From Aplysia californica (lineage: Eukaryota): a stretch of 64,000 nucleotides of DNA. This document shows, one piece after another, positions 11,097 to 61,061 of this stretch. A model generated the notes under the pieces. It ran no database searches, was not told where the DNA came from, and saw nothing but the letters and a program-made list of their open reading frames with translations. Within the stretch, counting starts at the first letter, position 1. Each line of letters opens with the position of its first letter. The stretch spans positions 1,418,259 through 1,482,258 of the forward strand of contig NW_004797275.1 in the NCBI RefSeq assembly GCF_000002075.1, given 5' to 3'. The position numbers and the translations under genes are program-made.

Positions 11097-12393
11097 TACC
11101 AAAACTTTTTTTTTACCAGACCACGAAGGAATAAAGTTAGAAAGCTGAAATTTGTTACTGATCTTTATCTTTCTCTATGTTGTCGCCTCCGACAGTTTTT
11201 CATTTTTGTCATCCGTGTATGACCTTGAAACGACCTTGAAGAAAACTAGCCCTCTACCGCTTTTCTGACCTCGTCATCACTTTCAAAATGCCTTCCTTTT
11301 TAAATTCTTTTTCACTTTGAGGAATTAAACAAAAGTCGGACGGGGCTAAATCTGGAGAACAGGGGGGATGTGGCGAAATTTTATAGCCACTTTCTCACAC
11401 AATTTCCTCAGCTTTTCTTGAAGTGTGTTCTGGGGCGTTGTCGTAAAGTAGCGAAACGCCGTTTCGGATCTTTTCTCTGCGTTATTTTTCATAGCCTCTC
11501 GTAATTTTTTTTAGCTAGTTAGAATAATTTTCTCCGGTGATCGTATGTCCATTTTCAAGATAGTCTGTCATAATCACTCTTTCTTGGTCCCAAATAAACT
11601 GATAGCATCACTTTTCCACTTGATGGCTGCACCTTTGTCTTCTTTGATGTTGGAGACAAGGGCGATTTCCACTGCATTGATGAAGATTTTGACTCAGGAT
11701 CGTAATGGTGGACCCATGTGTCATCCGTGGTTACAAGTCTTTCAAAAAAATTTAGTTTCTTCCTTTTCATATAGACCAAGCAATTTTTGACAACAATCCA
11801 CACGTCGCTCTTTTGAGGAGGAGTCAACAAACGTGGGACCCATCTCGCAGAAACCTTGGTCATATTCAAATGTTCTTTTAAGATTCGTTCAACGGATCCA
11901 ATGTTAAACCTAGTTTCTATGCTCAAACATTTGACTGTCGCCTGTGTATCAGACAACACAAGTTTCTTGAATTTTCAACACAATTTCTTCTGTTGTTGCT
12001 GTCACTGGGCGACCATCACAGTTGTCATCTTCAACGTCCATGAATCCACATTTGAATTTTTTACTCTAAAATTTATCACAGCATAGGATGGGCGATCGGT
12101 TCCGTATACGGCATGCATCTCCATAAAAGTATCCTCTTGTAGTTGCTTGCTTTGCAAGAACAAAAACCTCATAACTGCCCTGTGCTCAATTTTCTCTATT
12201 TTTATGTTGAAACTGGAGAACAACATACCCCCATTCACTTACAGTGCCCAGGTGTTAAAAGCAGTAATTGGAAATTCCCCCAAATGCATGCATTCTAGGA
12301 AGATGGTTGTTGGCTTTCACCCCAGATTTCAGCTTTCTACCTTTATTCCTTCATGGTCAGGTAAAAAAAAAAAAACTTTTGGTATACCCCTCG
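11097..12393 (-). mobile_element. Decayed mariner (Tc1/mariner superfamily) DNA transposon
   Basis: Frameshifted transposase: EKIEHRAVMRFL, KVSARWVPRLLT, LVTTDDTWVHHYDPE, SSGKVM, YDNA, PDLAPSDF. ~65-bp imperfect TIRs (11097-11155 and 12323-12393); the right end reads TA-CGAGGGG on the - strand. Confidence 0.92.
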
Positions 12394-32964: not shown

Positions 32965-32999
32965 TCAAAGGGCACCAAGACTTGTCTGAGACCGCGAGC
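32965..32999 (-). CDS. Class C GPCR terminal coding exon (RSRSQTSLGAL*)
   Basis: tctccctgcag|GC TCG...CTT TGA; phase matches exon 15. Confidence 0.7.
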
Positions 33000-37975: not shown

Positions 37976-38035
<60 letters not shown>

Positions 38036-41000: not shown

Positions 41001-42618
41001 CGAGCGGATGAGGGACTAGCTGTGATGAAAAAAAAAAAGAATGGAAAAAAAGCAGAATATCAAACAAATAATAAACCAACACAAACCCTCCTTACTGGGG
41101 TCACCATTGCCCACAACCACCGGCTCTGAGTAGATCCCCTGGTTGTTCACGTAGATGACCGATGACGCCCCTTTGCTCTTGTAGCTAGGGGGCGCCATGA
41201 TCACCGAGCCAGCGTAGTAGGTGTCGCGGTCATCCTCAAGGTAGATCCCCTCCACGCCCATGTTCACCAACTGCCTCACCTTTGGCGGGGAAAACAAAAG
41301 TGCGTCTCGAAATCAACTCAATAACAGTATTTTGTTTGAAGTCAAGTATGCATACAGAAAAATCGGTGGGACACGGAAAAATCTTTCAACTTGTCTTAAA
41401 TACAAAAAATGTAGTAATAGTATGAGAAAACATTTCGGGACCAGAAAATCTGTTCTCTATGTGTGTTTTTCGTTATGTCCATATTTGCTATGCTCATGCT
41501 AGACTGTCCATCTCATTTCCGACTTTAAACCCTTAAAGCTTTGGTCGCCTAAGCCTACAGAACTCATCTCATCTTATTTTGTCCTATCCCATCTTATCTT
41601 CAATATCTTACATTAACTCATCTTATTTTAAATATCTGTCATCATGTCATCTTATTTTGTCCCATCCCATCTTATCATAAATATCTTACATCATCTCTAC
41701 TTATATCACAGTCTACCTTTGGCAGGAACATTGCAAAGAGAATGAGCGTGGCTGTCAAAAAGAGTCCAAAAGCGATGCAAGCGTCACCATACTCCTGAGC
41801 GTAATCCTGGTCCTTGTTCAAACCTCCAACCAAGCCCCAAGCCAGCCAGATGGGGATACTGTAGAGAAACGATAATAGTGTGATGTAATTCTCATGGCTG
41901 TTAACTTTTAAAAAGATGGGGATACTGTAGAGAAACGATAATAGTGTGATGTAATTCTCATGGCTGTTAACTTTTAAAAAGATGGGGATACTGTAGAGAA
42001 ACGATAATAGTGTGATGAAATTCTCATAGCTGCTAACTTTTTAAAACCTTTGTGGTGGGCACAGGCCAAGAGCCTGAGCCCCCCTATTCAAAGCAGACAA
42101 TATTGTAAGAAATGTTAAAATGGGTAAGACTCCCATGGACATATATATGGCTTCGCTTTTATTATTTTTCATGAATTCAGTCTTCAAAGTTCATATTTTT
42201 TCTTCACCGTTGGCAAGTCTATGATGAGTTACAATAGAAAACAGAGAATACAAATTTTTCATGGGTGGTTGGCGGGTGCTCTGGTGTGGTTTGCTCCTTC
42301 TTTACTATCAAACAACCATCATCTTTATCTCTCCTTCTTCTTTTTTATGTTTGTTACTCTCTTGTAACACCTCTAATCTTCGGCACTTATGTGACCTTAT
42401 TGTGTTGCAAGTGCCGTAAAAACTCTTTTTAAAAAATAATTTAAAAAATAAAAATTTACAAATACGGACTCAACCATGTAAGTTGCTCAACATGAGATGG
42501 ATTTTAATTTTTTTAAGGATACTTCAACGGAAAGTATCAATCCTCACGATTTCTTCTTTGATGTGAATCCGATACATAAAAGGAAAGAGGTGACTTTTAT
42601 GTACACTTTCTTTTTCCC

Positions 42619-42665
<47 letters not shown>

Positions 42666-45600
42666 CTTGTCATGAGCGTCTAAATATGCAAGAAAGTCAC
42701 AGCCAAGGGATGATGACCTTTCTGATCACGTAGGCCTATTTGAATGTTCATGAACGCGAAAATAATATACAGTCCAAACCAACGTGCAATTATAGAGTTG
42801 AAATGAAATGGGAAGAAATAGATTGATACCATTGTCACAAATTGGTTTGGTGATGGATGATTTTAGATTCTAGAATATAACAGAAACAATGTCTTGCTAT
42901 CATAAAAAAAGATTTTGTCACAATGAATAACAGCAAAAAGGGAAAGTAATTTAAGAATCCCTCCTCTCCCTCCACTCACCCACACAATCCGTTCCCCTTC
43001 CCCCTCCTTTTCCAGTACAGTTGAAAGAATCTCCTCTCAGCACTTAATGAACTAAAGCACTTTGGCAAAAAGCTGACCTGAATCCTGCGGCAATCCCAAT
43101 AAAGACGCTCTCCCGGTGGTTGGTGATGATGCCGTGAGCATTCAGGGACAGGATGGTGGTGATGAGGATCATGAGCATGATGTAAATCAGTGACATGAGG
43201 TGATTCTCGAAGTTGGTGCGGACAAAATCAGCCATAGAGTCCATGCCCTTGTCGGCTTCCCATGTGTAGTGGTTGCAGACCCAGACACGAGAGCCGTCGT
43301 TGGCGGTCACTTGCACAGCCTCGGGGGGTACGGTGATCAGCCATTGGACGTCTATCACGATCTGAGGACGACACAGGGAGGAAGTGAGGACAGGTCAGAG
43401 ATCATTTCAAGACAAGTTGGAGCTGTGACCTCTATACTTTGGAAGCAGATACAAACAACAGAAATGCTGAAAAAGATATAGACAAACGGAACAGATTTCA
43501 CCAGTGTGAGTGTTTGCAAAGTGAAAAGGACATAGACTCAATGAGAGAAATTTAAAGCAGAGAAGAAGGAAGATAAACAGATAGAACACAATAAAGGGAG
43601 AGAAAGGAAGCAGGAACCACAAGTGGTGCCCTCCAACCACCCGCAAATCTCACCAAAGCACCTTCCAAACACTCCAGTCACAAAGAGGAGCTTTGGTTGT
43701 CAATCTGTAAGAACACATTGGAGCACAGTGCTGTAAAGTAGTTCAGTAGAAACAAGAGTACAATTCCTATTAAAAGAACATTTTTCACTGAGTTAAGCTT
43801 TAGTCTTAATGTGAGTTTTTGCTTGTTTTAGCGCTCACAACTGCATAAGGTCATATGAGCACCAAGGGGTGGATGTCAACAGAGAAGTCCTTACAGGGAA
43901 TCAGGCTTACTCTGCTCACCTCTCTAGCTTCAACAGCATAAAGTCTGCTTCAACTATTAAGGCACCCCGGAAATAGTGGGTTACAAGAGAGTGACAAACA
44001 TACAAAATAAGTAGAGGAAAATTGACGATATTACGGATAAGGAAAGAAAAAGCAACAGTTCCCTGTTGCAATTCCGGCACAGTTATGAGCATGACATCGA
44101 TGAATCAGCCCATTTACTATTTTACTGTGCAACAGAACATGGTAATGTCCCCCCTTTGAGAAAAGCATAAAGACATTTCAGTCAGTAGCACCACCCTGGG
44201 GGGTTAGTAAGAGTTTTATAACATTTGCAACACAATTAGATCATGTAAGTGCTGAAGATTAGAGGTGTAAAGAAGAGAGTAACAAACACAAAAAAGCAGG
44301 AAGAGAGATAGAGAATATAGATACAATTTGACAGGAAATAAAGAGCAAACCACACCAGAACACCCGCTGATTGAGTTTCTCTGTCTTTCTAAACAAACAT
44401 GTTTCAAGTCCGGATACGGCCCTCGCAGGACATAACAAACCAGCCCACCTCTTAAAATAACCTGCACTGAGCCAACAGAACAGCGATGGAGTAAAACATT
44501 TGAAAACTACAACAGAAAAACAATTATATTCACAAACTCAAAGAACTGAATTAATTGCCTTTAACATGTGCAATTTTTCCATAGTTGACTCTCATAACTG
44601 TCATATATAGAACGATAAGCTCAGTACTGGGTAAGGGACCTTCAACAGAAGGGAACAAACAATGATATTCACTTCCGAACACAGCTAATATCTCTAAACT
44701 ATCACCAAAACAGGATCAACCCAGACAAACCACCAATATGCTTACTTCGTGACCATGTCTTGCTTGTTTTAGTAAGCGTTTTACAGCACTTGCAACACAA
44801 TTAAGTAAAAAAAGTGTCAAAGATTAGAGGCATTACAAGTGAGTAACAAACACAAAAAGGAGGACAGATAAGGACGACAGATATTTAATAGGAAAGAAGG
44901 AGCAAACCACACCAGAGCACCTGCCAACCACCCACTTACCATCTACGAAACAGTCCCAACACCTGCTCGTCAAATCTCCCAAGCTACAGAATCTCTTTTA
45001 TTTTTTCGGTAAGTGTTTTACGGTGTTCAAAACTGCATAAGGTCAGATGGCCGTGCAGGACACATTAAACATTTCCAGTGGGTTGGAAATTTTTAATTTT
45101 GCCCAGGAGGCGGCCAAAGTCTATTGTTATCGATTTTGGACCACCAAGGGATCTTTAACGTGCGCAACTTGCACACAAGATCTCAGAGATTTTTTGCCTT
45201 TATCTGAGAAGGCTAGGTGTAGATCTTACCTACTATAAGATCAGGGGTGCGGCTGAAAGACAGCAATAAAAATGAGAAAAGGAGTAGCAATAGAAAAGCT
45301 GCAGAAAGAGTCAGGAGCCCAGAAGAGCGGGTAAAGGAGGTGAGGGGGTGGGGGCAGAAAGTGGAGACAAAAGCAGACGACAGAACATTGTTAGAGAGCA
45401 GGAAAGGAGGAGAAAGGAGACAATTTTAGAGAAGAAAATTTTAGGTCGCTATCCGGATTTGAACCTGGGACTTATTGAATGAGAGGCAAACAGCATTAAC
45501 CTCTCGACCACACAGGACCTCGGACAGCAACTTCTTCCTCCTAGTCCTGCCATAGACAATGCCCTACACTGCAGCACAGCAAAAAAAAAGTTTCTGAAGA

Positions 45601-48600
45601 CCTCCAACTTTTTTAACATGGCATTGGGCCAAAGTACAAAATTTCAAAGTGGGTGGTTGGCAGGTGTTCTGGTGTGGTTTGCTCCTCCTTTCCTATGAAA
45701 CATCTATCATTCACATCTCTCTTCTCCTTTTTTTGTTTTTATTACTGTCTTGCAACACTTTTAAACTTCAGTATTTATACGACCTAATCGTGTTGCAAGT
45801 GCTGTAAAACATTTATTTAAAAATTAATCTCAAAGTCTACTGGATTAACAACAACAAATCAGAAAAGGGATTTTTTTAAAAAGACAATGGAAAACATTTG
45901 ATTTCAGTTGTGCTTACCTGCACACCGACAGCAAAGACGAACATAAGGAATTGGTAAATTCCCTTCAGGTAGTTGGGTGATTCATCTCCAGGAAGCAGGA
46001 CGTCGGACGACTTAGAAGTCAAGATGACCATTAACTTTACCAGCAAAACAGCGAAGCAGATAGCATAGGACACTCCAACACCAAATCGGGTGATACCGCA
46101 TGTTGCCTGAAATTTTTAAAAATAATAACAAACACTTATTCTTTTTGTTCTTGTAATCGCAAAATGCCCCACAAGATATACATAAAGCATGCTGAAAAAG
46201 CTAGCCAACTTTCATCCTCTGGAGAAATGCAAATCAATAGATGNNNNNNNNNNNNNNNNNNNNNNNNNNNNNNNNNNNNNNNNNNNNNNNNNNNNNNNNN
46301 NNNNNNNNNNNNNNNNNNNNNNNNNNNNNNNNNNNNNNNNNNNNNNNNNNNNNNNNNNNNNNNNNNNNNNNNNNNNNNNNNNNNNNNNNNNNNNNNNNNN
46401 NNNNNNNNNNNNNNNNNNNNNNNNNNNNNNNNNNNNNNNNNNNNNNNNNNNNNNNNNNNNNATGCTACAATAAATACTGCGTACATCTTTGCAATGAAGT
46501 CAGTAATGAGTATTTTAGCTGAATCTGAATAAAGAGAGGCACATCGACTTAATAACAGTAAATAAGTGCTGGGAAAGGGCATGACAGATAAACAGAAAGA
46601 AAAGGGGAAAAGTATTAAAGCAGGACCTACCAGAAGCCCCCTCCAACTACCTGGACATGAATGTGGATTGAGGAAACGACTGCCAAAAAGCATCACAGAG
46701 CAATATCAGATCAGTAACCAAATAACACACATCCCAAACCAGACTAACTTATGTCAACAATGTATGTGTCACGACGCGATGGAATCAGGCGCTTGTCAAT
46801 TTTTGAGCATGTAGAGTTATTGGTATCGTCTTAAAACTTGTTCATTTGTCTTGTTTTAGATGATAAAAATCCTCTTCTATCTTGAATTAAAGTCAAGATA
46901 TAAATTTGGTAACTTCCAAACATTGAGAGTCTTTAGTAACAGCAAATTTACATTTTTTTGGGTGCCTTTAACCAAAGTTTTTTCAATAACGTTCTCACAG
47001 AAATGTGTCTATAAATGGACGTACAAGGACATGAGCCTAAAAACAGAAAAATCCATTAAAATTTCCAAACTAACAGAAAAATGCCTGTTTCTATGATTTC
47101 ATTATTGCGACAAACGCCTGATTTCACCACGGTGCCTCACATATACAGTATTTACCTTTGTGGGGACGAAAATGTACGCAAAGAGGACCAAATAAGCCAA
47201 GAAGATTCCAAAGAGGAGCAGCTGCCCCAGCCACATGGTGCGCCACTTGTGCCCCATGCGAGTCCCAAGCAGCTTGTACAAGATGTAGATCTCGAAGATG
47301 ATCACAGCGAGGATACCCACGCCAGCCAAGACGCCAAGAGCGATGACCCAACGGTGGCCTTGGTCGAAGCGGGTGCCGTATTCTTCCCGGTAGCTTTCGT
47401 GGTCGGCGGCCGGGTAGGCGCCGGTGATGGCTTGACCCAGGCGGTACTGCACAGTGCTGAAAGGCAATGGAGGGATAGCTTGATGGGGATTTGCAGACCC
47501 TCAAGACAGACACCCATGAATCTTCATCTCCTCCTCCATTTACATCTTTTCTTTTTCTTTCCCTCCTCCCTGACCTGCTCCTCCCCCTCTTCAATTTCCT
47601 TCTTCTTATCAGTTATTATTTGCACTTTTAATAATAATCTTATTTTAATATTATTATGATCACAATAATTATTATTTTCACAACTATCATTATAGATGCC
47701 TAAACAGTCCCCTATGATAAATAATAATAACAATAATGATGATGATGTTGTTTAAAATAATAATTGAATTTGTACAGCACGTATATGCTCTAGAGCATGC
47801 TCTGCTCTCTGCACTTTATAATTACAATACATATAACTTGATAAAATACATGACTGCAATATGACTATGAGCGATTCATAAACGATGAGCAGAGCAAGGC
47901 CATCTTTATCCAAAATCTGTCGCAAAGAACATGAAAAAGAGAATTTATATTAAATGATGCTTTGCAAATAAAGAAATGACCCAAATAGATACTTCAAAAT
48001 AGGAAATCAGCTGGAGTCCAATATTTTTTAAAATAATGCCAATGGTTTTCAAACATGCATTGTCTTTTGTCTTTATTTTTTTGCGCATAATTAAGTGGGT
48101 GTCTTCATCAAAGCTTGGTTGTGAAAGCCAAACCAATAAGACACTTGAATCAACAACAAAAAAAAGGTGTCAGTACCTAACACTAAAGGGGCTAGCTTAT
48201 TAAATAGACATGAGGGGTGCTGACAAAACTATTTGTTTCTAGCAAATCAGCCGAAAAAGGACACTGCGGTCAAATTTATAGATTTTTTTAATTTATGCCA
48301 TTTTCTTCAAGTTTAACATGTCTTATATTATTACATACTGAAAAATTGTACAAACTTCACCCATAAATTTGTTGTATATCTATAAATTCCATAGGGCTGG
48401 AATCCAAGAAGTAACTCATTTTGTCAGCATGTCTCATATTTCTCCTTTTCTCATTATAATTTTAGAGGGCTACTATACTGCAGAGGCCTTCACATCATTA
48501 CCTGTACTTAGGAGGCTCCTCACTGGTGGGTTCTGAGGTGGCACCAACGGTGGGTGGAGACGTCGGGGGTGCCATGGTGGTTGGAGGCTCACAACATTCC

Positions 48601-51446
48601 CCAGCATTGGGGCACTCAGAGGGGTTAAAACCTGATCCAAAATCGTTTTCCAGGTCAACTGTGATGACTGTATTGCCATTAGAAAAAGATCCAATCTGTT
48701 GAGAGAAATAAGGCTCTTATCAAAACAGAGAAACAAGTTCTTACCAGAAATAAAAGAAATGTTCCGGTTCAGAGAAAAAAAGGTCTCTACTGATATGAAA
48801 GGAAGAAAGACTTACGAGTAGTGCAAACAAGTAAAAAAAAAAAATTCTGAACGAAAAGCATTCATACAAAAAGAACACAATACTGTAAAGAAAAAAAACT
48901 GTACAGAAAAAAAAGTACTGATACAAAGGAGAACAAAAAAGACGCAAAATATTACGGCTCAATAAGAAAACAACAACTTGGCTTACTTTTTCAAATGCAG
49001 GAGACCTGCCCTGACGATTCGCGAAGATGTAGTATTCATACTGTGCTTGGTTCGGCCGCAGTTCCCCGGAGGCACTTTCAAATATTGGGAGAGCAGACTT
49101 GATGGATCTGTAGAGGTCGTTCTGCTTATACTTCTCATTGCGTAACTTGTCGCAGAATTGGTAGTTGCTAAAGTTCTGCTGATTGCAGTCCTGCATAGCC
49201 TTATCCATACCCTGGAAGGAAAAAAATCACTGAAGAATCAGAAGAAGGTCGGGAAGGGAGGGAATAATGACTTACTATTTTCAGAGGTTCTAAACATGTT
49301 CCTCTGTGGTGATAAACTAGATCTCTTATCCATTATCTTATTACATTTTTGTCATAGTGGAAATCCTGCAGCAATAATTATAATAAGGTGAAAGGAACGA
49401 CACAGTATGATATGATATGAAACAGGTTTAACATCCCTTTTAACACAGCAAGTTATCAAAGAGATAGAAGTCTAACCATTACAACACAGACCAAGGCGCA
49501 GTAGAGTAGAGAACCAGCTGTTAGCAGCAATTTTCCACGTGCAATTTGTCGCTATTAGAGTTGCTTCTATTGCCCCAAGCTTCAGTGAGTCTCTAAATCC
49601 TTCCACAAGATGGGGGAATATTCATAAAGCCATGGTGGAATATTAGTGAGAACATGGAGGAATGTTTATGAGAACATGAAGGAATGTTTATGAGAACGAG
49701 GTGGAATATTTATGAGAACATGGTGGAATATTTATAATATGAGAACATAGTGAAATATTTATATGAAAACACTGTGGAATGTTCATGAGAACATGAAGGA
49801 ATGTTTATGAGAGCAACACCGAATATGAGAACAGGAAGGAATGTTTATGAGAACATGAAGGAATGTTTACGAGAACATGAAGGAATGTTTACGAGAACAT
49901 GAAGGAATGTTTACGAGAACATGAAGGAATGTTTATGAGAACACGAAGGAATGTTTATGAGAACATGAAGGAAAGTTTATTCTCTTTTTAGCAGAGGTTT
50001 TACGGCGCTCGCAACTGTATACGGTCACATTAGCCCCAAGGGGTGGATGTCAACAGAGAAGTCCTTATAGGGAATCAGACTTACTCTGCTCACATCTCTA
50101 GCTTCAACAGCACAAAGTCTGCTTCGACTATCAAGGCATCCCGGAAAAAGTGGGTCACAAAAGTGTGACAAACATACAAAAGAAGTAGAGGAAAAATGAC
50201 GATAGTAAGGATTAAGAAAGAAAAAGCAGCAGTGATCCCTGTTGCAGTTCAAGCACAGTTATGAGCATGACATCGATGAATCAGCCCATTTACAATTTAC
50301 GATTCTACTGTGTATAAGAACAGGTTAATGTCCCCCCTTTGGGAATGGCATAAAGAGACTTTAGTCAGTAGCACCGCCCGGGGGGGGGGGGGGGGGGGGG
50401 GATTGGAATGTTTATAATACATGGAGGAATATTCAAGAGAACAAAGTGGAATATTCATGACAATATAGTGGAATGTTTATGAGAACATAGTGGAATATTT
50501 ATGAGAACATAGTGGAATATTTATGACAATGTAGTGGACTGTTTATGAGAACATAGTGGAATGTTTATGACAATGTAGTGGAATGTTTATGAGAACATGG
50601 AGGAATGTTTATGAGTACAGTGGAATACTTATGGGAAGAAAAAGACAGGAGTCGTTATGCTGCTCTGGCCTTTGCTCTAAAGCCTGTGATAATGGACATA
50701 AAATAGAAATAAACAAAATTTTTTGCACAGAATTTAAATCGAATATGGTAATGTGCCCTGTTTCCTTTGAAAATAAATATTGTAATCTCTGTCCACTGTT
50801 TAAAGTAAAAAACAAAACAACAAAATGATTTCAAGGGTCACTGGTTTCATGACACCACATGTAGGGATCAGACTACTAACCTTCATCACCAACTCCACAG
50901 ACATGATAGTTCGAAGTGCAGACATCACTATAGGAGACGGCGTATTGTCATCAATTTTAGGTATTCTGTTGACAAAATCAGAAATTTAAGTACGAGTTTT
51001 ACAGCACTTGCAACACACAATAACGTCATGAAACTGCCGAAGATTGGAGGTGTAACAAGAGAGTAAAAAGTTGTTCCCGCATCCGATCCGGACACTGGGG
51101 ATTGCCTTGTTAGTGAGACAAATTCCTGGGCCTTCGAGTTTACTTCCCTAACAAGAGAGTAACAAACACAAAAAAAGGAGGAGGAGAGATAAGGACGATA
51201 GATGTTTGACAGGAAAGAAGAAGGAAACCACACCAAAGCACCCGAAAACCACCCAAATCAGAGAGCATAGGTGACTTATTTAGAGCGGGTCTACGCAACA
51301 GCAGCTCCATTTTGAAAGGAAGCAGATGAGAAAAATGAAAACATACCAATAAAAAAAAAAGTAGAAAAAACAGATCACACAAGAACATCCACCACCACCT
51401 TGCACAAAATTACTGTGTACGTTAAATCCAATAACCTCAATAGAGG

Positions 51447-51512
<66 letters not shown>

Positions 51513-54500
51513 TGTGTGTGTATGTGTATGTGAGCCTGTAAAAACGCCCAAATATCGAGGATGCAAACTGAGATGCCAGTGTTTCTGGCAGAACAAGCAA
51601 TTCTGATGCTGTTTCAAAAGTTTTTGAGTCATGAGATTGTTTTAGTAAAGGTTTTTCGGCGCTCGCAACTGCATATGGCGATATGAGCGCCAGAAGATTA
51701 GAAGTGTTACAAGGGAGTAACAAACATAAAAAAGAAGGAGGGGAGATAAAGACAATAGATGATGTTTGATAGGAAAGAAGGATCAAACCACACCAGAGCA
51801 CCCGCCAACCACCCACATGAGATATTTTGTGACACAAGATAAAGGGGTGTACAAAGTGGAGAAAACAAACAGTCATGACTCCAATTTTGAGACTTCAAAT
51901 TGTTGTATATTGTACACTTCACATCCTAACTAATTACAGTCAAACCTGCTCTAACAACCTTCTAGGACGATCGTTTCTACAATAAACGACGATTCCTTCC
52001 AGCGCCCCCCCCCCCCTACCCCTCCCAACAAAAAAACACTTTGCATTTTTTTCTCTATAACAATGACACTGTCCAGGAAGGACCACTTTTCTAAGATGAC
52101 CACTTTTCTTCTCGCCGAGGGATAATCTTTCTAAGACAAGTTCAACTGTATATTTAACATGTTAATGAGTCAAAATGTGTTTTACCCTTCCCACGTACGA
52201 TGTGCAAATGGATAAACATTCAATCTTAGCACAAATTCTATTTTGTAAGCATCAGAATAGAAAATGATGCAGGCACCCANNNNNNNNNNNNNNNNNNNNN
52301 NNNNNNNNNNNNNNNNNNNNNNNNNNNNNNNNNNNNNNNNNNNNNNNNNNNNNNNNNNNNNNNNNNNNNNNNNNNNNNNNNNNNNNNNNNNNNNNNNNNN
52401 NNNNNNNNNNNNNNNNNNNNNNNNNNNNNNNNNNNNNNNNNNNNNNNNNNNNNNNNNNNNNNNNNNNNNNNNNNNNNNNNNNNNNNNNNNNNNNNNNNNN
52501 NNNNNNNNNNNNNNNNNNNNNNNNNNNNNNNNNNNNNNNNNNNNNNNNNNNNNNNNNNNNNNNNNNNNNNNNNNNNNNNNNNNNNNNNNNNNAAGGAGCA
52601 AAAAATAACAGGGAGAAAAAAATTGTGATATTGAAACAACAACAAAAAAGGCATGAAACAGAAACATACTCTCCCACAGTCTCTTCGTAATGAGTTATCC
52701 ATTGGTTGTCTACATCACTGAGGGAGTCTACAGCTCCGTTGTTGATGTAAGTTTTAAATTCTGACATGACTGGGTCATACGTTGCGGGCTGGACAGAGTC
52801 GATCACGATGGCATTAGCGGCTGCTGAGCTCTTTGAGGTGAGGAATATTCTGAAAAACAAAAGTATTCACAAAATCAGTGCAAAAAGTTCACCATACGAG
52901 ACTCAACAGTTTTATTTGTTTTTGTAAGTTTTACCATCATCATTATTATATAATACTTATTAGTGGTATTACTATTATCATCATTATTACTATTATCATA
53001 ATCATTATTTTTCCTGTTACTATTATTATTATCATTATTATTATTACTATTTTTTATTACCACTATTATCATAATCACCATTATCACTTTTCTTATTATT
53101 ATCGTTTGTGTTATTACTATGGAACATGATAAGTCTTATTTCATTATAGGCTGAAAAAAATACATGGTGTTTCTCATAGTCTAATAAAAGCATAGAAAGA
53201 CTTAAACTAGGGGATCAAATTTAATTTTATAGTTGTGATTGGCATGTCCACAAAGATATTCTATTTGTGTATCACATCATTTTCGAATGTCACCGACATC
53301 CGACATCAGTATTGAAATAGCTACGCTCTTTGCCACTGCAACCACAAGTAAGATAAATTCCCACAAGGGAAAGCCTATTTCATACAGTATCTTTCTTTTT
53401 TTTTTCTGCTAAGATATTATATCCTACTCAGTCTGAGTAAGCCTTGACAGGCAGAGTCAAGGTAGCCCGCCTCCTATAACAACAAAATTCAGGCCACATG
53501 CAGGCAGCGTAAAAACATTTACAATCAACTATCGCGAGCTGCCCCGCCAAGAACAAGTGACCATCTACTATCAACACAATATATTAGACTCAAAATCAAC
53601 ACCTACATATTATGCTGTAAAGCGCACAGAGTATGCTGTAGAGCATGGATATGCGCTATAAAAATGACTGATACAATCGCCAAACCAGTGTGGAGAAGCA
53701 GACCAAACTGTGGAACACATCCTCCTGCGGACACAAATAAAATATGTCCAACCCCATACACACTACATGAGAAACTGTACACGCCAGCAAAGGGCCTAAG
53801 CAGGATGACCCTGTATATGACAGAGATACAGACTTTCAAGCGTGGTCCAATCAAAAAAAAGAAGAAGAACCACTCATATCTCTGTTGCTTCCAATATCTG
53901 AGGTAAAGATGAACCCAAGTTCCCCATTTCACACAGCCAGCACTAAGTCAGCTAAAGTTGTGCCTCAGGGGGACGTAGAACATCTACAACCAACTACTCA
54001 CATGTTTCTTCCAATTTCTGAGGTCAAGATGAACCGGAGTTCGCCATTCACTGCGTCATTGTTTCCATTGGCGATGGTACCCAGCAATATGTCCAGCTTA
54101 GCTCTGGACATCAGAGGAACAACGTACTTTGCCTTTAAGCGAGGCTTCAACTGCGTGTCCACAAAGGTATCCATCTGAAGACATTGATCAGAAATTACTT
54201 TCAAAATATTATTATTTAGTCGGACGTCTATATTCAGATGTACTAAGACCAACATTTTGACCAGTTTTTGCAGTTTCTTCAGTATCAGTTGCATGTGTCA
54301 AGCAATATTTTGTCAAAATTCAAATTCTCAATGTTGAGAATGGCAAGAAAAATACATAAACTACATACAATTGTAGAAAGAATGAAATAGTAATTTTTCC
54401 TCTCTCTTGAAAAATGTTGCTATCTGGGCCTAAGACATTTGGACAGCTTGCTGACAATTTGAAATACATGCGTAAGTTCAAAGGTCCTATCTAAAACAAC

Positions 54501-57500
54501 AGTAGCTGCTGTCAGTCTATCGGGGATACATCTAGAAAGAATCTAAAAATCAACAACTTATGGTATTTAAGATTTAAACAACTTCAAAGCTCTGCCAGTG
54601 AGTTACTTGGAAGCATTTTATTCAAAAACATTTGTGAGGTATCAGAGAAACAGGCACTTTTCAGCCAGTTTGGCAATTTTCATCAAATTTTTTTTTCCGG
54701 CTCAGCACCTTGTATGTCCCTATAAAATCCTTTTTCGATGTGAACTTTACTGAAAAGCATTGATTAAAGGCAGAAAATAAGTCATTTTTCAGTTTTTAAA
54801 GGACTCTCAAACCACAGAAGCTACCAAACTTTGGCAGCAACTTTCTCCTTAATTTTACCTCTGAAATCATCAGTACAACAATGGGCGCGTTTCATAAGGA
54901 TACAGCTTTTCATGACAACTGCAACACGGAAAAAAAGAGGAAAAAAACAGACCACACCTTACACGGTGGTGTCGATAGCCTAGTGGTCAGGCTCTCGGAC
55001 TTGTAACTGAATGGTTTTTGCATCTCATTGACAGGATCAATAACAACTGGATCAATATATGCACATCATAGCAAAAGGAACTTACATCAGTGACATCATC
55101 TATGCTCTGGCTAAACTGCACACATATGTTGGATCCTTCCAGCTTCTCTTTCAACTTCATGTATGCCGAGGCCCAGAACGGATCATCAGCCAAGTATAAA
55201 ATCATCGCAAACTTCGAATTCATGTGGCGCAAGAATCCAACGACAGCCTCGATGTCATACATGAATGAGGGTCTCAGCCGAAGAAGCGTTTTCTCATCAT
55301 CAAAGGAGAGATCTGGAAAGCAAAACACAAGGTTAACAGATCTTGAGTTCAAGTTTCAATTTTTTTTTAAAGATAAATAACAGCAACATGACAAAGATCA
55401 TTCAGCGGTGGAAATGAGAAAGACAAAAGCAAACTATTGTTTATAACAGTATAGAAGTAGGGCCGACCAGCACCACTCTCCAAGCAAAAGCAAACAATAA
55501 TTCTGCACAGGAAATCGCCATCTTAAAGTTGAGGACTCAGAAGAACGGATTCATTTTTTTCAGGAAAAAACGAACTCCTTGTCTCTGGCAAGCCATGTAC
55601 AGTGGTTTGCGGTATGAACTGCTGTGCCAGTGAGCCGCTAGCAGCTGCTTGGTCACATTCCTTTAAAAAGATGACAACGTTACTATTATTTCCAGTAATA
55701 TGCGAAAACAGGTCTCTCTTAACCAATTTTTTTTTTCATTTGATGAAGAACTATCAAAATTCGTTTGATTTAATGACCAGTTTAGTGATGTGTATGTTAC
55801 TTTCAGGTTTTGTACCAAAAAAGAAAGCTCTGGCATAGTGGGAAAATCCTCGAGAAACAAAGAGTTAAGACATCTGTAACACTCAAAATACCTGTGGACA
55901 TGCACTATATAAGCGCATTTATTATTATTATATATATGTAAGAGCACAGATATGCGCTATATAAATGCAATTATTATTATTTTATATGCAATTTTTATTA
56001 TTATTATTATTATCATTATTAGATCCCACTCGGCCAAGGTTAGCCAGGTAGACAGGATTGAAGCAGCCTACCCCAAAAATTATCAAAATGTTGCCAGTAG
56101 AGGTGTAAAACATTTATATTGATATAGAAAAAGAATATCAAAGCAGCAACAAACCACCTACTTATATCAGCAGAGAAGAAACTTTACCAAAGAGTGGTCA
56201 CAAATGTTATATATTCGTACCCAGCGAGTTTGCCGTTGGGCTGAGAAGAGTAATTCCGAGATCAGAAGCAAGCATCCCTGTCCTGATAGTGTCATCGTTG
56301 TCGTAAGGCCCGACATATGCAACAAGGTTCTCCTGTTGCATTTCCTGAACTCGAATATTACACTGTGCGAAGCTGAGAACATTCCCAATGGTCTGTGAAA
56401 GAAGAACAGGATAAAGTCACCTCATGGTCAAAGGTAAGAATCATAGACATAGATCTAGGCACTCGGTCTTCATCGTCTCACCTACATAATAATTTGTGTA
56501 TTTTACACTTACAAAGAATCAGCAACAAACAGCAGTCCTAAGCCTGAGCATTTGATCCAAGTACACACTAAGAACAGCTTGCTAGACTGTGAACTGTATT
56601 CCCTAATTACTACTGCAGAGCAAAAACAACTCAACACTTTCCCATACCAGGAAAAATACAAGTGAAAAAGAACCAAAAAACCGCCAGCTGTTCAGACATA
56701 GGCCCCTTGAAAAGGAGTTTTAAGGAAAGAAGGGGCAGCACTGTATATTATAGTTGTATCATCACGCAGTGGAATCAGACGCTCGTCGCCGTAAAACCCT
56801 CTACTATAAAAAAAAAAGACGCTCGTCTTGTGTATATGAACTTATTAGTATTATCTTACAGTCTTTTAATTTGCTGTCATTTTGATGGAAAAAAAAACAT
56901 CCACAAAGGGTCATTATCTTGAGTAGACATTGAGATATTTGTGTTTGAAGGAGGTGGGGGTCTTCTTGTGTCAGAGGTAAAATCAGCAAGCAATGGCCAC
57001 CAAAATTTCATGAATTCCAAAGCTTTAGTGTCCCTGAAAACTACAAAGTTACAATTTTTGTGCCCTTGCTTTAAGGTTTTCAGTAAAATTCACACAGACA
57101 TGTCTTTTCAAAGGGACATAAAAGGCACTATTTTCAAGCCTAAAAAAAAAACTTAATAAAAATTGACCGAAGAATAGAAAATTGTGGATTTCTTCGATTT
57201 CACTATTTTGACAAGCACCCGATTTCACCAAAATGCATCACAATATTTTAAGAAAGAAGAGCACCTGTCTCAAAGAGATGTTCAGGAGAATGACAAAAAC
57301 ATATTACCTTCAAAGTCTTGTAAAATAAATACAGTCGGGTCTGCCATGATGGCAATCAGTATAATATGGCCACTTTCCATTTCCCCCCTTGCTTCTTTTT
57401 ATATAATTTAACTGTGTAAAACGGTCACCTGGGCAAGGCGGCCGCAGCTACCTTATTTTAATAACTTCAGCCAACTTTACCTGCCTAAGGCAGCCAGGCG

Positions 57501-60500
57501 TGGTCTCCACTCGCCTGACGCTTTGTCATTAATTCTTAATCGGTCCCTGACACTGTGGACGGGCTGTCATAATCCATTCACCTGTCGTTATTGTTTGTCC
57601 TTCCAATGAATGTTTACCCAAGTTGACCAATGGGTAATAAAAAAATTTCAAGTGCTGTTGAGGGATCAAAGCGTGTGATCCGGCCTATAGGCCCCGCCCA
57701 GAACTCATGCACAAATCATATGATATGATATATGTGAGGTGACTGGTCACTGTTTTGTTTACCTAATCTATAGCAAAGTAACAATGGATATTAACGTAGA
57801 CTTGCGAGAGAAGCCTCATTCATTCTCCGAGTGGTGGCAACCTGTGTGTTTGTTTTACCATGGAATTCGGTCTTCAGCGTCTTACTGACATAATATTTCA
57901 TATATTTTTCACTTACGCAGAATCACCAACAAGCAAAAGCAAACCAAATAATAAATCAACAAAACAACAGCAACAAGAACTCTTCTTACATCCCTCCACC
58001 CTCCTTTTTCAAACGAAAACAAAAGTTAACCCTTTCAAAAATTAAAATTCGCCTCACAACAGTCCTAAGCCTGAGATCAGCCCAGGTTTGGACCTTAAAA
58101 GAGAATGGTTTGCTTTTTTCATTTTGATCAGTCCTGCCTAAGACGGCCACCTGTCTTATACAACCACTTTTCTCTTTGACCAATGGGTGGTCATTTTACA
58201 CAGGTTCAACTGTATATGGTCGCTTTTAAGGACAATCAGGCTAACCCAGATTTGGGGGTTTCCAGAAATGTTGACCTACACCAAAAGTGGGTATTGCCCT
58301 ACCTATAAGAGAAGTTCGGTTTCATTGGTGTGTATAATTCTTTGGTTATAAAGAAAACTCTCCTAGTCTTTAAAAAAAATTGAACAAGGGTCCAAAAACT
58401 TTACCTTCGATTTTCTCAAAACAGCATTTTTAGGGATAGCCCCCCTTAAGGTGCTTAAAAGCCACTAAATATTTGATAACTTGAAAGAGGCAGTGTTTTT
58501 TCAAATGAAAAACAAGCCGACAACTATACCAAACACACAGTATGCATTTCTGCAACACTGGTGCAAAATCTCCTAGAAGAGCACATTTTCATGAGAAGGT
58601 AATGGTAAGTGTTTTACCGCGCTCGCAACTGTATAAGGTCATATGAACGCGCAGGCCACATTAAACATTTTCAGTTGGTAGGACATTTTGAATTTTGTGT
58701 GGGTGGTGGCCAAAGCCTACACTTATCGACTTTAGACCAGAAAAGGATCTTTAACGTGCGCAACTTGCACTCGTGACCTCCGAGATTTTTCGCCCTTGTC
58801 CAAAAAGGTTAAGTTTGGATCTTTCCTACCAGAAGATCAGGGGTGTGGCTGAAAGACAGCAGTAAGAAGGAGCCAAGGAGTAGCAGTAGAAAGGCTGCAG
58901 AAAGAGTCAGAAGTCCAGAGGAGGGGGCAAAGGAGGTGAGGGGGTGGGCGCAGAAAGTGGAGACGAAACAAAACGACAGAACATTGCTGGAGAGCAGGAA
59001 AGGAGGTGAAAGGAGACAATTTTAGAGAAGAAATATTTTTCTAGTCGCGACCCGGAGTCGAATCCGGGACCTTTGATTGAGAGGCGAACACCTTAACCTC
59101 TAGGCCAAGAGAGCCCCCTTCCATGGGAAGTGACAGCAGAGTCTGGAAAGTCTTAAACATTGTTCGTGTTGGATCCCTGGCTCTCAGCAGAGCCGACAGA
59201 ACCAGTGCTTGTTTGAGTTAGTTTTGTTTTAACAAGAGTTTTACAGCACTTGCAACACAATTAGGTCATGATATAAGTGCCCGAGATTAGAGATGTTACA
59301 AGAGAGTAACATACACAAAAAAGAAGGAGGAGAGATTTAGACAATAGACGTTTGATGGGAAATAAGGAGCAAACCATACTAGAGCAGTCGCCAACCACCC
59401 ACTTGTTTGAGTTGGCATGAGCAAATTGAAGCACACCTACACAGTACGAAACGGTAATCTAGCACAAGGGACAAATTAGAAACGAAAAGACAAAAACCAT
59501 CGAGGGAAAGGAAAGAAGTAAGACTTGCCAGTGCATGGTGCCCTCCAACCACCTGCCATGAATAGTAAATCTGAGCTTCCAAGGGAAACCGTTAGATTTA
59601 AACCAGCACACACTTAGGAGTGTGCTCTTTGTGTGGAAGGGTAAATATGTGAGGTATGCTGACAAAATGACTACTTCTCGCAATCCACAAATGGAGATAT
59701 GGCCAAAAATCGACAATGGAGTCGAATTTGTAAATTTTCTATAGATGCCATATTCTTTAAGTCTTGTATAACACGCCTTTTATTTATTTCATAGTTATAA
59801 ATTGTAAAAACTTCACTTTTTTTTCCATAGGGCTCAAATCCGATAAGTAACTCATTTTGTCAGCACTCTTCACATATAACAAATGCAGAAGTGTATGCTC
59901 AGGTCAGTAAGTTTAATGTCTCATCCTAAGATACCTACCTGCTCTGACCTTGAACAAGAGTCAAAAGCGACTGCTCCGACTGACACTGGGCTGTTGATAA
60001 CCGCCTTGTACTTATCTATAGCCCAGAAGAAAGCCTGAAAAAAGAAACAATTTATTAAAACTTTGATAAACTTGTATCCCCTTACGATTATTATTAACCC
60101 GTTAACTTAACAATTGTCCTTACATCCACATCCCCACCCCATACATTATTCATCATTCTAGTTGTCAGTACCCCAGAAGGTACTCTCCCAATACGCAACT
60201 TAGTAGGAGTGGGTTTGATTCCTAAAATTGGTTTAGATTTAGTATCTAACTTAACGAATGACGAGTGTATCAGTTGGGGACTTAACACACTCGGGGGGGG
60301 GGGGGGGGGGGGGGGGTGTAAACCTTATAATAACAATAATAGATAGCATTTGTATAGTGCAAATTCCAGCTCAACAGCAAGCTGTATGCCCTTTACAATC
60401 TGACCAATAAAATTATTACCCCAGCAGACCTGATAGCATTCTGAAACAATCTCAACTACCTGGGAAGCTTAAAGTGCAAACTGCCCTTTTATAAGTGCTA

Positions 60501-61061
60501 AAACCCTAGAGGACAAAAAGGTCTTGTAAACGTATACTAATTAGTTCAAAGATATTGATCTTCGGAAGCTACCTTCCCTCCTATCCCTCTTTCCCACACC
60601 CATTCTTTCTTAGATTAGAAACGAAAGACTTCTATCTGACTCAACAATAATAGCAAACCGTTATAAATTGATATCAGACAGAGACTAAAATAAGGAAGTG
60701 GGATTTAAGGTAAGCAGTTACACAGAGCGGTTCTGATTACCAACCCAGAGACAATCACAGGCAAATTGCCGTAAATGCAAAAGAAAAGGATAAAAATGAA
60801 AAATACCAATAAGTCAATAATTCCATTCGTAGTCATAGTGGAGTCACATGTGTAGGCGTTGGTGCCTCTCTGGTGTAGATCGAAAAGACCCCCAATGACA
60901 AAGTACTGGTTCGAGACTGCATTCTTGGGATCTCGAATAGCAATATTGTCAACATAACAGGCAGAGCACGTTGTATCAGGAAGTGATGCGCATGTCTGGC
61001 AGTCCACGCCGATGACTAGCACTATGAAGGCGAAGCATATCGCAGTCAGAGAATGCCCCAT
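32965..61061 (-). CDS. Orphan class C (mGluR-like) GPCR, complete CDS, 16 coding exons, 980 aa: join 61061-60807, 60034-59939, 56392-56221, 55312-55086, 54174-54002, 52849-52670, 50965-50881, 49211-48987, 48695-48502, 47456-47156, 46106-45918, 43361-43078, 41858-41717, 41279-41096, 35069-34869, 32999-32965
   Basis: Manual splicing gives all GT-AG introns, consistent phases and 2943 nt without internal stops. Signal peptide MGHSLTAICFAFIVLVIGVDC. VFT motifs VIGGLFDLH, AFFWAID, AFDSCS, VAYVGP, LLSPTA, NQWITHY. Class C 7TM motifs CGITRF..AVLLVK (TM3), NHRES (ICL3/TM6), IWLAW (TM6), FLPK (TM7). Confidence 0.93.
33056..33410 (-). mobile_element. tRNA-derived SINE family E with Meta/CORE-like core and L2-type (ATT)n tail (partial copy ~60327-60500)
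   Basis: A box TGGCCTAGTGG, B box GGTTCAAATCC, core GTGTCCTTGGGAAAGGCACTT...CACCCAGGTG..AATGGGTACC, tail GCTATACAAATGC(TATT)n. Confidence 0.82.
34869..35069 (-). CDS. Class C GPCR exon 15 (C-tail)
   Basis: tttccccccag|TG GCG...CGC C|gtaagt, phase 1-1, open frame. Confidence 0.8.
37787..40140 (-). mobile_element. 5'-truncated non-LTR retrotransposon, CR1 group (Rex1/Babar-like), in GPCR intron 14
   Basis: Endonuclease C-terminus TIDLCY..PPLGDSDH, TDW..F, PNNKPWVT; RT with RPVALT, FVDFSSAFNTI, GGPQGCVLSP, FADD; C-terminal DHSHPL..RYRNSF; AATAAA plus (ATTGTC)n tail; (TA)n on both flanks. Confidence 0.92.
38035..39723 (-). CDS. Reverse transcriptase ORF (562 aa, uninterrupted part of LINE ORF2)
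   Basis: ORF track; all RT motifs present. The upstream part has one premature TAG (~39802) and a frameshift (~39750). Confidence 0.85.
40408..40852. repeat. Polypurine low-complexity tract (GAAGA/GGAGG/GAATA pentamers)
   Basis: ~440 bp almost entirely purine on +. Confidence 0.9.
41096..41279 (-). CDS. Class C GPCR exon 14 (proximal C-tail)
   Basis: gccaaag|GTG AGG...CCC A|gtaagg, phase 0-1; GC3-rich codons. Confidence 0.88.
41717..41858 (-). CDS. Class C GPCR exon 13 (TM6-TM7, FLPK)
   Basis: ctctacag|T ATC CCC...CCA AAG|gtagac; IPIWLAW...ACIAFGLFLTATLILFAMFLPK. The acceptor is triplicated (see findings). Confidence 0.9.
41849..42046. repeat. 3 x 66-bp tandem repeat spanning the exon 13 acceptor
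   Basis: Units start at 41849, 41915 and 41981; the first two are identical. Confidence 0.95.
43078..43361 (-). CDS. Class C GPCR exon 12 (end of TM4, ECL2, TM5, start of TM6)
   Basis: tcctcag|ATC...TTC AG|gtcagc; QWL...PP, ECL2 Cys, SLIYIMLMILI, NHRESVFIG. Confidence 0.92.
45008..45512 (-). mobile_element. tRNA-derived SINE family C
   Basis: On -, A box TGGTCGAGAGG and B box GGTTCAAATCC; same 3' tail as families A and B; second copy at 58605-59108. Confidence 0.82.
45918..46106 (-). CDS. Class C GPCR exon 11 (TM3-TM4)
   Basis: atttcag|GCA ACA TGC...CAG|gtaagc; CGITRFGVGVSYAICFAVLLVK. Confidence 0.92.
47156..47456 (-). CDS. Class C GPCR exon 10 (TM1-TM2)
   Basis: ctttcag|C ACT...AAG|gtaaat; WVIALGVLAGVGILAVIIFEIYIL and LGQLLLFGIFLAYLVLFAYIFVP. 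Confidence 0.92.
48502..48695 (-). CDS. Class C GPCR exon 9 (end of VFT, SECPNAGECC, Pro/Thr stalk)
   Basis: ctcaacag|ATT GGA...TAC AG|gtaatg, phase 0-2. Confidence 0.85.
48987..49211 (-). CDS. Class C GPCR exon 8 (GMDKAMQDC...YEYYIF...AFEK)
   Basis: ccttccag|GGT...AAA|gtaagc, phase 0-0. Confidence 0.88.
49640..50630. repeat. 22-bp minisatellite (GAGAACATGAAGGAATGTTTAT), split by a family B insertion
   Basis: Visible periodicity at 49640-49980 and 50405-50630. Confidence 0.9.
50881..50965 (-). CDS. Class C GPCR exon 7 (IPKIDD...RTIMSVELVMK)
   Basis: gtcaacag|A ATA...AAG|gttagt, phase 2-0; needed to restore frame between exons 6 and 8. Confidence 0.8.
51937..52148. mobile_element. Short Tc1/pogo-type MITE (related pieces ~27722-28142 and ~58130-58212)
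   Basis: TA|CAGTCAAACCTG...CAAGTTCAACTG|TA with internal GACCAC repeats. Confidence 0.65.
52670..52849 (-). CDS. Class C GPCR exon 6 (IFLTSK...DNQWITHYEE)
   Basis: tttttcag|A ATA...GA|gtatgt, phase 2-2; N-x-W motif of the VFT. Confidence 0.85.
53874..53985 (-). pseudogene. Decayed partial tandem duplicate of GPCR exon 5
   Basis: NGELGFIFTSDIGSN vs NGELRFILTSEIGRN; has indels, an internal deletion and no intact GT donor. Confidence 0.7.
54002..54174 (-). CDS. Class C GPCR exon 5 (MDTFVD...LRFILTSEIGRN)
   Basis: tcttcag|ATG...AT|gtgagt, phase 0-2. Confidence 0.85.
55086..55312 (-). CDS. Class C GPCR exon 4 (DLSFDDEKTLLRLRPS...NICVQF)
   Basis: ctttccag|AT...GAT|gtaagt, phase 1-0. Confidence 0.9.
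56221..56392 (-). CDS. Class C GPCR exon 3 (TIGNV...VAYVGPYDN...LLSPTANSL)
   Basis: ttcacag|ACC...CTG G|gtacga, phase 0-1. Confidence 0.88.
58605..59108 (-). mobile_element. tRNA-derived SINE family C, second copy
   Basis: Aligns over its full length with 45008-45512. Confidence 0.82.
59648..59876. mobile_element. ~230-bp MITE family H (copy at ~48210-48438)
   Basis: TGTGAGG..TGCTGACAAAATGA / TCATTTTGTCAGCA..TCACA inverted ends. Confidence 0.65.
59939..60034 (-). CDS. Class C GPCR exon 2 (AFFWAIDKY...AFDSCSRSEQ)
   Basis: tttttcag|GCT...CAG|gtaggt, phase 0-0; matches the VFT 'AM.FAI..IN......LG....DTC' pattern. Confidence 0.9.
60807..61061 (-). CDS. Class C GPCR coding exon 1 (signal peptide, start of VFT)
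   Basis: ttatttcag|ATG GGG CAT...GAC TTA TTG|gtattt; encodes YFVIGGLFDLHQRG..YTC. The acceptor directly before the ATG implies upstream exon(s). Confidence 0.9.

Follow-up and report, generated by a model that had tools for sequence, protein, structure and literature searches.

The window analysed here, 64,000 nucleotides of Aplysia californica DNA (contig NW_004797275.1, positions 1,418,259 to 1,482,258), carries on its minus strand a gene of 16 coding exons for a G-protein-coupled receptor of class C with an extracellular Venus-flytrap domain (the flytrap) and a seven-transmembrane (7TM) domain. The best reading of this gene, held with about even confidence, is an orphan receptor whose flytrap pocket was rewired with aromatic residues within its own lineage, the sensing of a ligand being predicted. 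Its observed basis is an intact domain architecture, the splicing of exons 1-5, the placement of the family and the history of the binding-site residues. The chances seem evenly balanced that the receptor binds a small molecule other than a primary alpha-amino acid and that its conserved 7TM domain passes on the signal.

Identification of the receptor gene

When exon 12 was searched against proteins, 69 of 97 candidates came back, and the top match, 100% identical and from A. californica, was named metabotropic glutamate receptor 2 isoform X2 (XP_005089382.2). Exons 1-14, all with GT-AG ends, run from 61061 to 41096 and give 902 codons that are free of stops when joined, and this gene model was identical to XP_005089382.2 at 902 of 902 compared residues. 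Addition of exons 15 and 16 carries the frame to a stop at 32965, for a full product of 980 residues. Exons 1-5 were joined at the predicted GT-AG joints, with 0 other letters, in contigs from all four read runs used, which represent four studies, whose RNA nature is guessed or unlabelled and whose records name no tissue; exons 8-14 rest on identity to the RefSeq protein rather than on reads. A sequencing or mis-splicing artefact was ruled out by the run contigs over exons 1-5 and the RefSeq identity. One exon 12 match among three candidates scored sets a lower bound on copy number; the family-level scan passed over the gene itself.

An earlier examination of the letters and their open reading frames (the sequence-only reading) had singled out 55086..61061. 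This stretch was found to hold real coding exons, namely exons 1-4, but the gene extends far beyond it. The motifs quoted from it all lie on the minus strand: CQTC..TTCSAC in exon 1, VGPYDNDDT in exon 3, RLRPSF and DDPFWASA in exon 4, and LLSPTANSLDLS across the exon 3/4 junction.

Loss of the amino-acid signature

At the signature positions of metabotropic glutamate receptors (mGluRs) the Aplysia flytrap carries the substitutions S165>N149, T188>N172, D208>F191 and Y236>F220; together with the further pocket changes R78>D83, D318>S302 and K409>~S383, all seven ligand residues are replaced. mGluR3 D194 and mGluR1 T188, D208, Y236 and D318 are here taken to be ligand positions. Papers are cited by PMC identifier and, except where a supplement is named, for statements in excerpts of their text: mGluR3 S151, T174 and Y222 are named as binding residues in PMC3206071, and the numbering of S165, R78 and K409 follows PMC3703292 and PMC6307864.

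The register was obtained from two independent profile alignments. A 40-sequence family profile was aligned to mGluR3 chains (E 9e-69), with mGluR3 S151/T174/D194/Y222 sharing columns with Aplysia N149/N172/F191/F220, and a 12-sequence heterobranch profile was aligned to an mGluR profile built from 9 sequences (hhalign probability 100), giving the same register. A pairwise phmmer alignment was out of register at about residues 131-166; both profile alignments correct this, and the substitutions stand. As an internal control, the Aplysia locus L010 has R, S, T, D, Y, D and K at the seven positions, which is the canonical mGluR signature. Since both profile alignments agree and this control carries all seven residues, the residue mapping of the sequence-only reading is right: proper profile alignment does not restore the S/T/D/Y residues, and its claim of a flytrap lacking the amino-acid signature is upheld.

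Placement of the family

In a 7TM tree of 26 rows (an earlier, less careful version had 42, 23 of 65 having been dropped as junk, long or redundant), the spiralian family and insect receptors formed one clade (100/99) apart from the mGluRs (100/100), the trees being midpoint-drawn without a GABA-B, CaSR or GPRC5 outgroup and with CaSR, GPRC6A, T1R and V2R sequences left out. Members of the clade are mollusc, annelid, brachiopod and flatworm orthologues and flytrap-less insect receptors. Topology tests rejected trees in which the Aplysia protein was forced to group with two group-II-like mGluRs (p-AU 5.5e-10), as well as those in which the spiralian family and the mGluRs form one clade without the insects (p-AU 0.00067), and the family was recovered separately in a flytrap tree (SH-aLRT 99). 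Judged from these trees, the Aplysia protein belongs to an old class C family separate from the mGluRs. The rejected grouping, and the presence of a canonical mGluR exon elsewhere in the genome (L010), bear out the advice of the sequence-only reading against annotating the gene as a glutamate receptor. As that reading had also suggested, the receptor does belong to a class C lineage of invertebrates that is uncharacterised.

Members from Lingula, Macrostomum, Lamellibrachia and Lineus came to light when 1.84 billion representatives were searched with a profile, and through name look-ups and a further search. The insect family, reached from one of the matches, is conserved and consists of the 7tm_3 domain only, with flytrap profile matches in 0 of 119 sequences, and its profile scored ten spiralian members at 113-230 bits versus 14-56 bits for twelve mGluRs and multi-flytrap receptors. 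It is presumably the family of Drosophila CG32447; there was no Drosophila melanogaster row among the 120 insect-family matches listed. CG32447 is listed as a class C receptor (PMC1192796, PMC6829134). In an Owenia member (P0152) the 7TM domain comes almost immediately after the signal peptide, with no flytrap, and a paralogue from the chiton Liolophura (P0401) was observed to have a partial flytrap; it is possible that these two are further flytrap losses.

History of the signature in molluscs

The history of the signature was followed in 40 aligned molluscan-type sequences: 12 heterobranch-clade (three of them unnamed and assigned by likeness), 4 caenogastropod-type, 3 cephalopod-type and 21 others, which are bivalve, chiton and basal-gastropod orthologues. 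Among these 21, S165 is kept in 18, T188 in 16, D208 in 14 and Y236 in 16; all four residues are present in 11 and three in another 4, so that 15 have three or four. The distal-carboxylate positions of the ancestral-type members are changed, R78 to N (20 of the 21) and K409 to Y, and D318 is replaced by S in 18. In the heterobranch clade the S/T/D/Y residues are all gone from 10 of 12 sequences, the other two retaining the tyrosine alone. All four caenogastropod-type sequences have S165>N, with a hydrophobic residue or Thr at D208, and the three cephalopod-type sequences are altered in a different manner. Contrary to what the sequence-only reading had implied, signature loss does not mark the lineage, since S/T/D/Y persist in the majority of orthologues from bivalves, abalones and limpets. 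In the flytrap tree the heterobranchs and caenogastropods are sisters (SH-aLRT 100) nested within signature-keeping gastropods, which indicates that the loss in Aplysia is derived; by this comparison the signature was lost in the higher gastropods and, separately, in the cephalopods.

The heterobranch replacements are themselves conserved: Y147 in 12/12, N149 in 11/12, N172 in 10/12, F191 in 9/12 and W221 in 12/12, the mean modal frequency over the flytrap being well below this at 0.54 in the same 12 sequences. Of 427 columns, 25 are clade-switch columns, and these include five of the 16 mapped pocket positions (Fisher p 0.0013), a clustering that is suggestive and not a formal test, because the pocket list was taken over from mGluR1, the thresholds were set by the analyst and the sequences are related. 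The aromatic residues mapped to the pocket number 2 in five ancestral-type examples and 2-4 in heterobranchs, with 4 in 7/12. From these alignments, the real change in the pocket is the loss of amine-binding acids and the gain of aromatics. Among the cephalopod rows (P0066, P0067, P0055, P0400), Octopus has N, Y, F and W where heterobranchs have N, F, F and W, a likeness that is possibly convergent.

Protein architecture

The class C 7TM domain scored 111 bits against Pfam 7tm_3 (cut-off 33.5), with seven helices in the predicted model, and the flytrap scored 47.2 bits against ANF_receptor (cut-off 25.4). VIA-align comparison with an mGluR ligand-binding domain gave a Z of 35.8 and a root-mean-square deviation of 3.1 A over 406 aligned residues, and the top Foldseek match was mGlu2. 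The AlphaFold model has a mean pLDDT of 70.3, with block means mostly 80-96 over residues 41-400 of the flytrap and low confidence at residues 20-34, in the stalk at 508-538 (pLDDT under 50) and in the tail. A flytrap homodimer prediction scored 0.28 against a mark of 0.32, the alignment not being used. ESM Atlas searches gave generic class C clusters only, those named GABA-B (0.96) being tied with others, and there was no Pfam coiled-coil match in the Aplysia protein.

No Pfam match to the nine-cysteine domain (NCD3G) was found in the Aplysia protein at E 0.1, and there was none in any of 7/7 molluscan proteins or in 4/4 other full-length spiralian members (Lingula, Lamellibrachia, Lineus and Macrostomum); a control fish mGluR2 did match, and the Aplysia genome has nine NCD3G matches on other contigs. 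In place of this domain, the linker between the flytrap and the first transmembrane helix (TM1) has three cysteines in 36/40 sequences and four in 4/40, and it is followed by a stalk with a Ser/Thr/Pro content of 30-63% in 40/40. Flytrap C238 is conserved in 39/40. The equivalent cysteine of mGluRs is bonded to the cysteine-rich domain, which makes it plausible, by analogy, that C238 bonds to the short three-cysteine linker.

The class C signalling residues C639, C728, K660, E783, P840 and K841 are conserved in 40/40 sequences, and the C-terminus is LGAL, IGAL or LGSL in 36/40. At the F position of the mGluR NFNE motif, a residue with a role in G-protein coupling, 39/40 family members have H. 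The sequence-only reading had also described an extra cysteine cluster before the fold. Cysteines do precede it, but as a two-cysteine family loop (C24, conserved in 33/40, and C35, in 31/40), an N-terminal segment with two cysteines being present in 29/40; C32 is not conserved, nor is C21, the first cysteine of CQTC, at the end of the hydrophobic leader. The absence of the nine-cysteine domain, a greater peculiarity of the architecture, had been missed.

Proposed mechanism and alternatives

The ancestral spiralian receptor, having kept S/T/D/Y but with R78>N, K409>Y and D318>S, would have bound an alpha-amino acid without a distal carboxylate. In the ancestor that caenogastropods share with heterobranchs, S165 would have changed to N, T188 to N or D and D208 to a hydrophobic residue, after which the heterobranchs would have fixed Y147, N149, N172, F191 and W221. 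With its two asparagines the pocket could still grip a carboxylate or another polar group, and with the acids that hold a primary amine gone and aromatics lining that side, our guess is that an N-methylated zwitterion, for instance a betaine, or else a neutral aromatic metabolite would fit. A betaine-type ligand agrees with the chemistry but is a guess; Pleurobranchaea, a heterobranch, feeds in response to betaine (PMC6306152). In a dimer, lobe closure would reach the 7TM domain through the short cysteine linker and a module of the juxtamembrane segment and second extracellular loop (ECL2), which would replace the rigid cysteine-rich domain in coupling. We regard as doubtful a bolder account, in which an unnamed family of at least protostome age joins flytrap to 7TM domain by a three-cysteine linker and a mucin-like stalk, the ligand class changed in the higher snails, where a neutral or basic amino acid gave way to a metabolite of betaine or aromatic type bound within an aromatic box, and the insects dropped the flytrap.

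Several points weigh against a rewired, ligand-sensing pocket. The facing of the new residues into the pocket rests on sequence register, the fold search being without residue-level geometry, and the enrichment of switch columns has the limits given above. The same pocket is shared by freshwater and land snails, which counts against betaine. The flytrap may not drive signalling at all, because the stalk is of low confidence and the insect relatives have no flytrap (0/119), and coupling to G proteins may differ from that of mGluRs, given the H in the NFNE motif. Lastly, six of the seven binding residues are different in the schistosome receptors SjGRM7/Smp_128940, which reportedly respond to glutamate all the same (PMC9750798).

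The alternative that survives best, although we consider it less probable, is that the heterobranch flytrap binds no small molecule and serves, on a glycosylated and flexible stalk, for structure, adhesion or the binding of a partner, with a 7TM domain that is constitutive, uses its own pocket or is the silent half of a heterodimer. Over 39 orthologues, identity to Aplysia is 65-88% in the 7TM domain versus 17-50% in the flytrap, the insect members and the Owenia protein do without a flytrap, the stalk is rich in Ser, Thr and Pro in every sequence, the bulky aromatics could merely fill the cleft, and GPR156 is constitutive without a large ectodomain (PMC11621567). However, plain filling does not need polar N149 and N172 fixed at ligand-contact positions, and orthologues with the same stalk retain the full alpha-amino-acid site (all four residues in 11/21), which implies that a stalk of this kind does not preclude the sensing of a ligand.

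It is improbable, in our estimate, that glutamate or another common amino acid is still sensed through non-canonical contacts, and this explanation is kept because of the reported glutamate responses of SjGRM7/Smp_128940 (PMC9750798, PMC3206071, PMC3261222). Asn is able to form hydrogen bonds with a carboxylate, the Y236 position is still aromatic through F220, and R274 lies at the E292 position; R274 is found in only 5/12 sequences, though, R78, S165, T188, D208, Y236, D318 and K409 are all changed, and the same genome has an mGluR with the canonical signature. Decay of the pocket under relaxed selection, with meaningless substitutions, would be in keeping with fast flytrap evolution and the parallel loss in cephalopods, but it seems very unlikely given that the replacements are conserved to a degree well over that of the flytrap as a whole and are concentrated at the pocket. 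Least probable of all is a sensor of metal ions or polyamines, an idea that goes back to the sequence-only reading, which had taken the acidic YDNDD loop to suggest a cationic or non-amino-acid ligand: D148, D150, D151 and D83 are acidic in Aplysia and position 150 is E or D in 9/12 heterobranch-clade sequences, but D148 and D83 each occur in 1/12, 4/12 have no acid at the 16 mapped pocket positions, position 151 is E or D in 15/21 orthologues of the signature-keeping group, and fish mGluR2 has D at the S166 position.

Comparison with known receptors

The best PDB matches of the Aplysia receptor were mGluR2/3. It shares with mGluR groups I-III the flytrap fold, the class C 7TM domain, C72/C112/C238, the TM3-ECL2 cysteines, K660/E783 and the PK motif, but it has no nine-cysteine domain, all seven ligand residues are changed, it falls in a separate clade and structural identity is 17-21%. 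The nine-cysteine domain and S/T/Y amino-acid site by which CaSR, GPRC6A, T1R and V2R are recognized were not found in the Aplysia protein, and CaSR chains score well below mGluRs in the family-profile match. The insect 7TM-only orphans share its 7TM clade, N-x-R-E and the proximal tail motifs, and differ in having no flytrap and another C-terminus.

Spiralian receptors with 2-5 tandem flytraps (P0086, P0088, P0097, P0102, P0121) are molluscan and nemertean proteins of about 1300-2900 residues that are unnamed in databases. They likewise lack the nine-cysteine domain and usually have three cysteines before TM1, but they have tandem flytraps and fall outside the family in both the 7TM and flytrap trees. 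Solemya P0150 and similar rows carry a pair of flytraps, what looks like a single transmembrane helix and a tail of low complexity, and gave neither a 7TM nor a kinase match. GABA-B receptors also join the flytrap to the 7TM domain without a cysteine-rich domain, as in the Aplysia receptor; the 60 best PDB sequence matches listed included no GABA-B chain. Aplysia was observed to have several further class C genes (L013-L017, on contigs C396, C1032, C299, C1154 and C29), in which the exons are long and the signatures partly changed, with nine-cysteine domains on some of these contigs; they may represent a chemosensory-type expansion.

Among invertebrate receptors with altered pockets, class IV/mXR (DmXR) has lost R78 and K409 and does not respond to glutamate (PMC6307864), and the ancestral-type members of the present family follow the same logic. 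In class IV the backbone-binding residues are retained, as is a cysteine-rich domain, which measures 97-108 residues in every class IV row of PMC6307864 supplement file 8, whereas the Aplysia protein has neither. Schistosome SmGluR/SjGRM7 and planarian atypical glutamate-family receptors are spiralian and have a degenerate signature (PMC3261222, PMC9750798); SjGRM7 is set apart by its description with a cysteine-rich linker, unlike Aplysia (PMC9750798).

Altered-pocket class C orphans were already known, in class IV/mXR and the flatworm atypical receptors (PMC6114109). No description of the family, its stalk or the gastropod switch was found in the literature within reach, subscription journals and bioRxiv supplements lying outside it. 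Five of six accessions searched for gave no match and a FlyBase identifier appeared in two expression lists; the excerpts of surveys in Lymnaea and Anomia merely count class C genes, and that of PMC11650548 does not mention the family. Orthologues in molluscs, a brachiopod, an annelid and a nemertean have been automatically named mGluR2, 3, 6 or mgl-1, names that mislead work on glutamate signalling in Aplysia, Lymnaea, Biomphalaria and oysters. Within the family one receptor exists in three natural states, with an intact amino-acid site (abalone, scallop), a rewired site (heterobranchs) and no flytrap (insects), whose comparison opens the questions of how a class C pocket changes its ligand and of whether a flytrap is able to drive a 7TM domain without a cysteine-rich domain. 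If the bolder account given above is true, these would constitute a natural ligand-switching series and a new route of class C activation, with a possible gastropod betaine receptor.

Exon structure and neighbouring elements

All 16 exons lie on the minus strand. Exon 1 (60807..61061) holds the ATG, the hydrophobic leader (about residues 1-21), the N-terminal cysteine loop C24/C32/C35 and the start of the flytrap with D83 at the R78 position, and exon 2 (59939..60034) encodes residues 86-117 of flytrap lobe 1. Exon 3 (56221..56392) carries Y147 (56305-56303), N149 at the S165 position (56299-56297) and N172 at the T188 position (56230-56228); exon 4 (55086..55312) carries F191 at the D208 position (55265-55263), F220 at the Y236 position (55178-55176), W221 and C238; and exon 5 (54002..54174) carries S302 at the D318 position (54021-54019). 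The flytrap continues in exon 6 (52670..52849), whose junction with exon 5 was seen as a loose end in the run contigs, and in exon 7 (50881..50965), which covers the K409 region and in which the mGluR cysteine loop is absent; its core ends in exon 8 (48987..49211). Exon 9 (48502..48695) encodes the three-cysteine linker (C499/C505/C506) and the Thr/Pro/Ser stalk, in the place of the nine-cysteine domain.

The juxtamembrane segment and TM1-TM2 are in exon 10 (47156..47456), TM3 (C639, K660) to TM4 in exon 11 (45918..46106), the extended ECL2 (C728), TM5, the NHRE motif and TM6 in exon 12 (43078..43361), and TM6-TM7 with the LPK motif in exon 13 (41717..41858). The acceptor of exon 13 is set among about three tandem copies of a short repeat (41858-42040, minus strand), with similar acceptors upstream of the one used. 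Exon 14 (41096..41279) encodes the conserved proximal cytoplasmic tail, and an alternative donor at 41087-41096, nine bases past it, gives RefSeq isoform X1 with three additional residues. The tail continues in exon 15 (34869..35069), and exon 16 (32965..32999) has the last codons, with the conserved C-terminal (L/I)G(A/S)L, and the stop.

The intron between exons 14 and 15 contains, on the receptor's own strand (minus, 38035-40140), a LINE-like reverse-transcriptase open reading frame of 588 codons (RVT_1, 110 bits) with upstream fragments. Open reading frame fragments at 11555-12238 on the minus strand have what we take to be a likeness to mariner-type transposases. Short exon-like stretches at 22416-22682 (plus strand) and 20194-20570 (minus strand) may belong to other genes.

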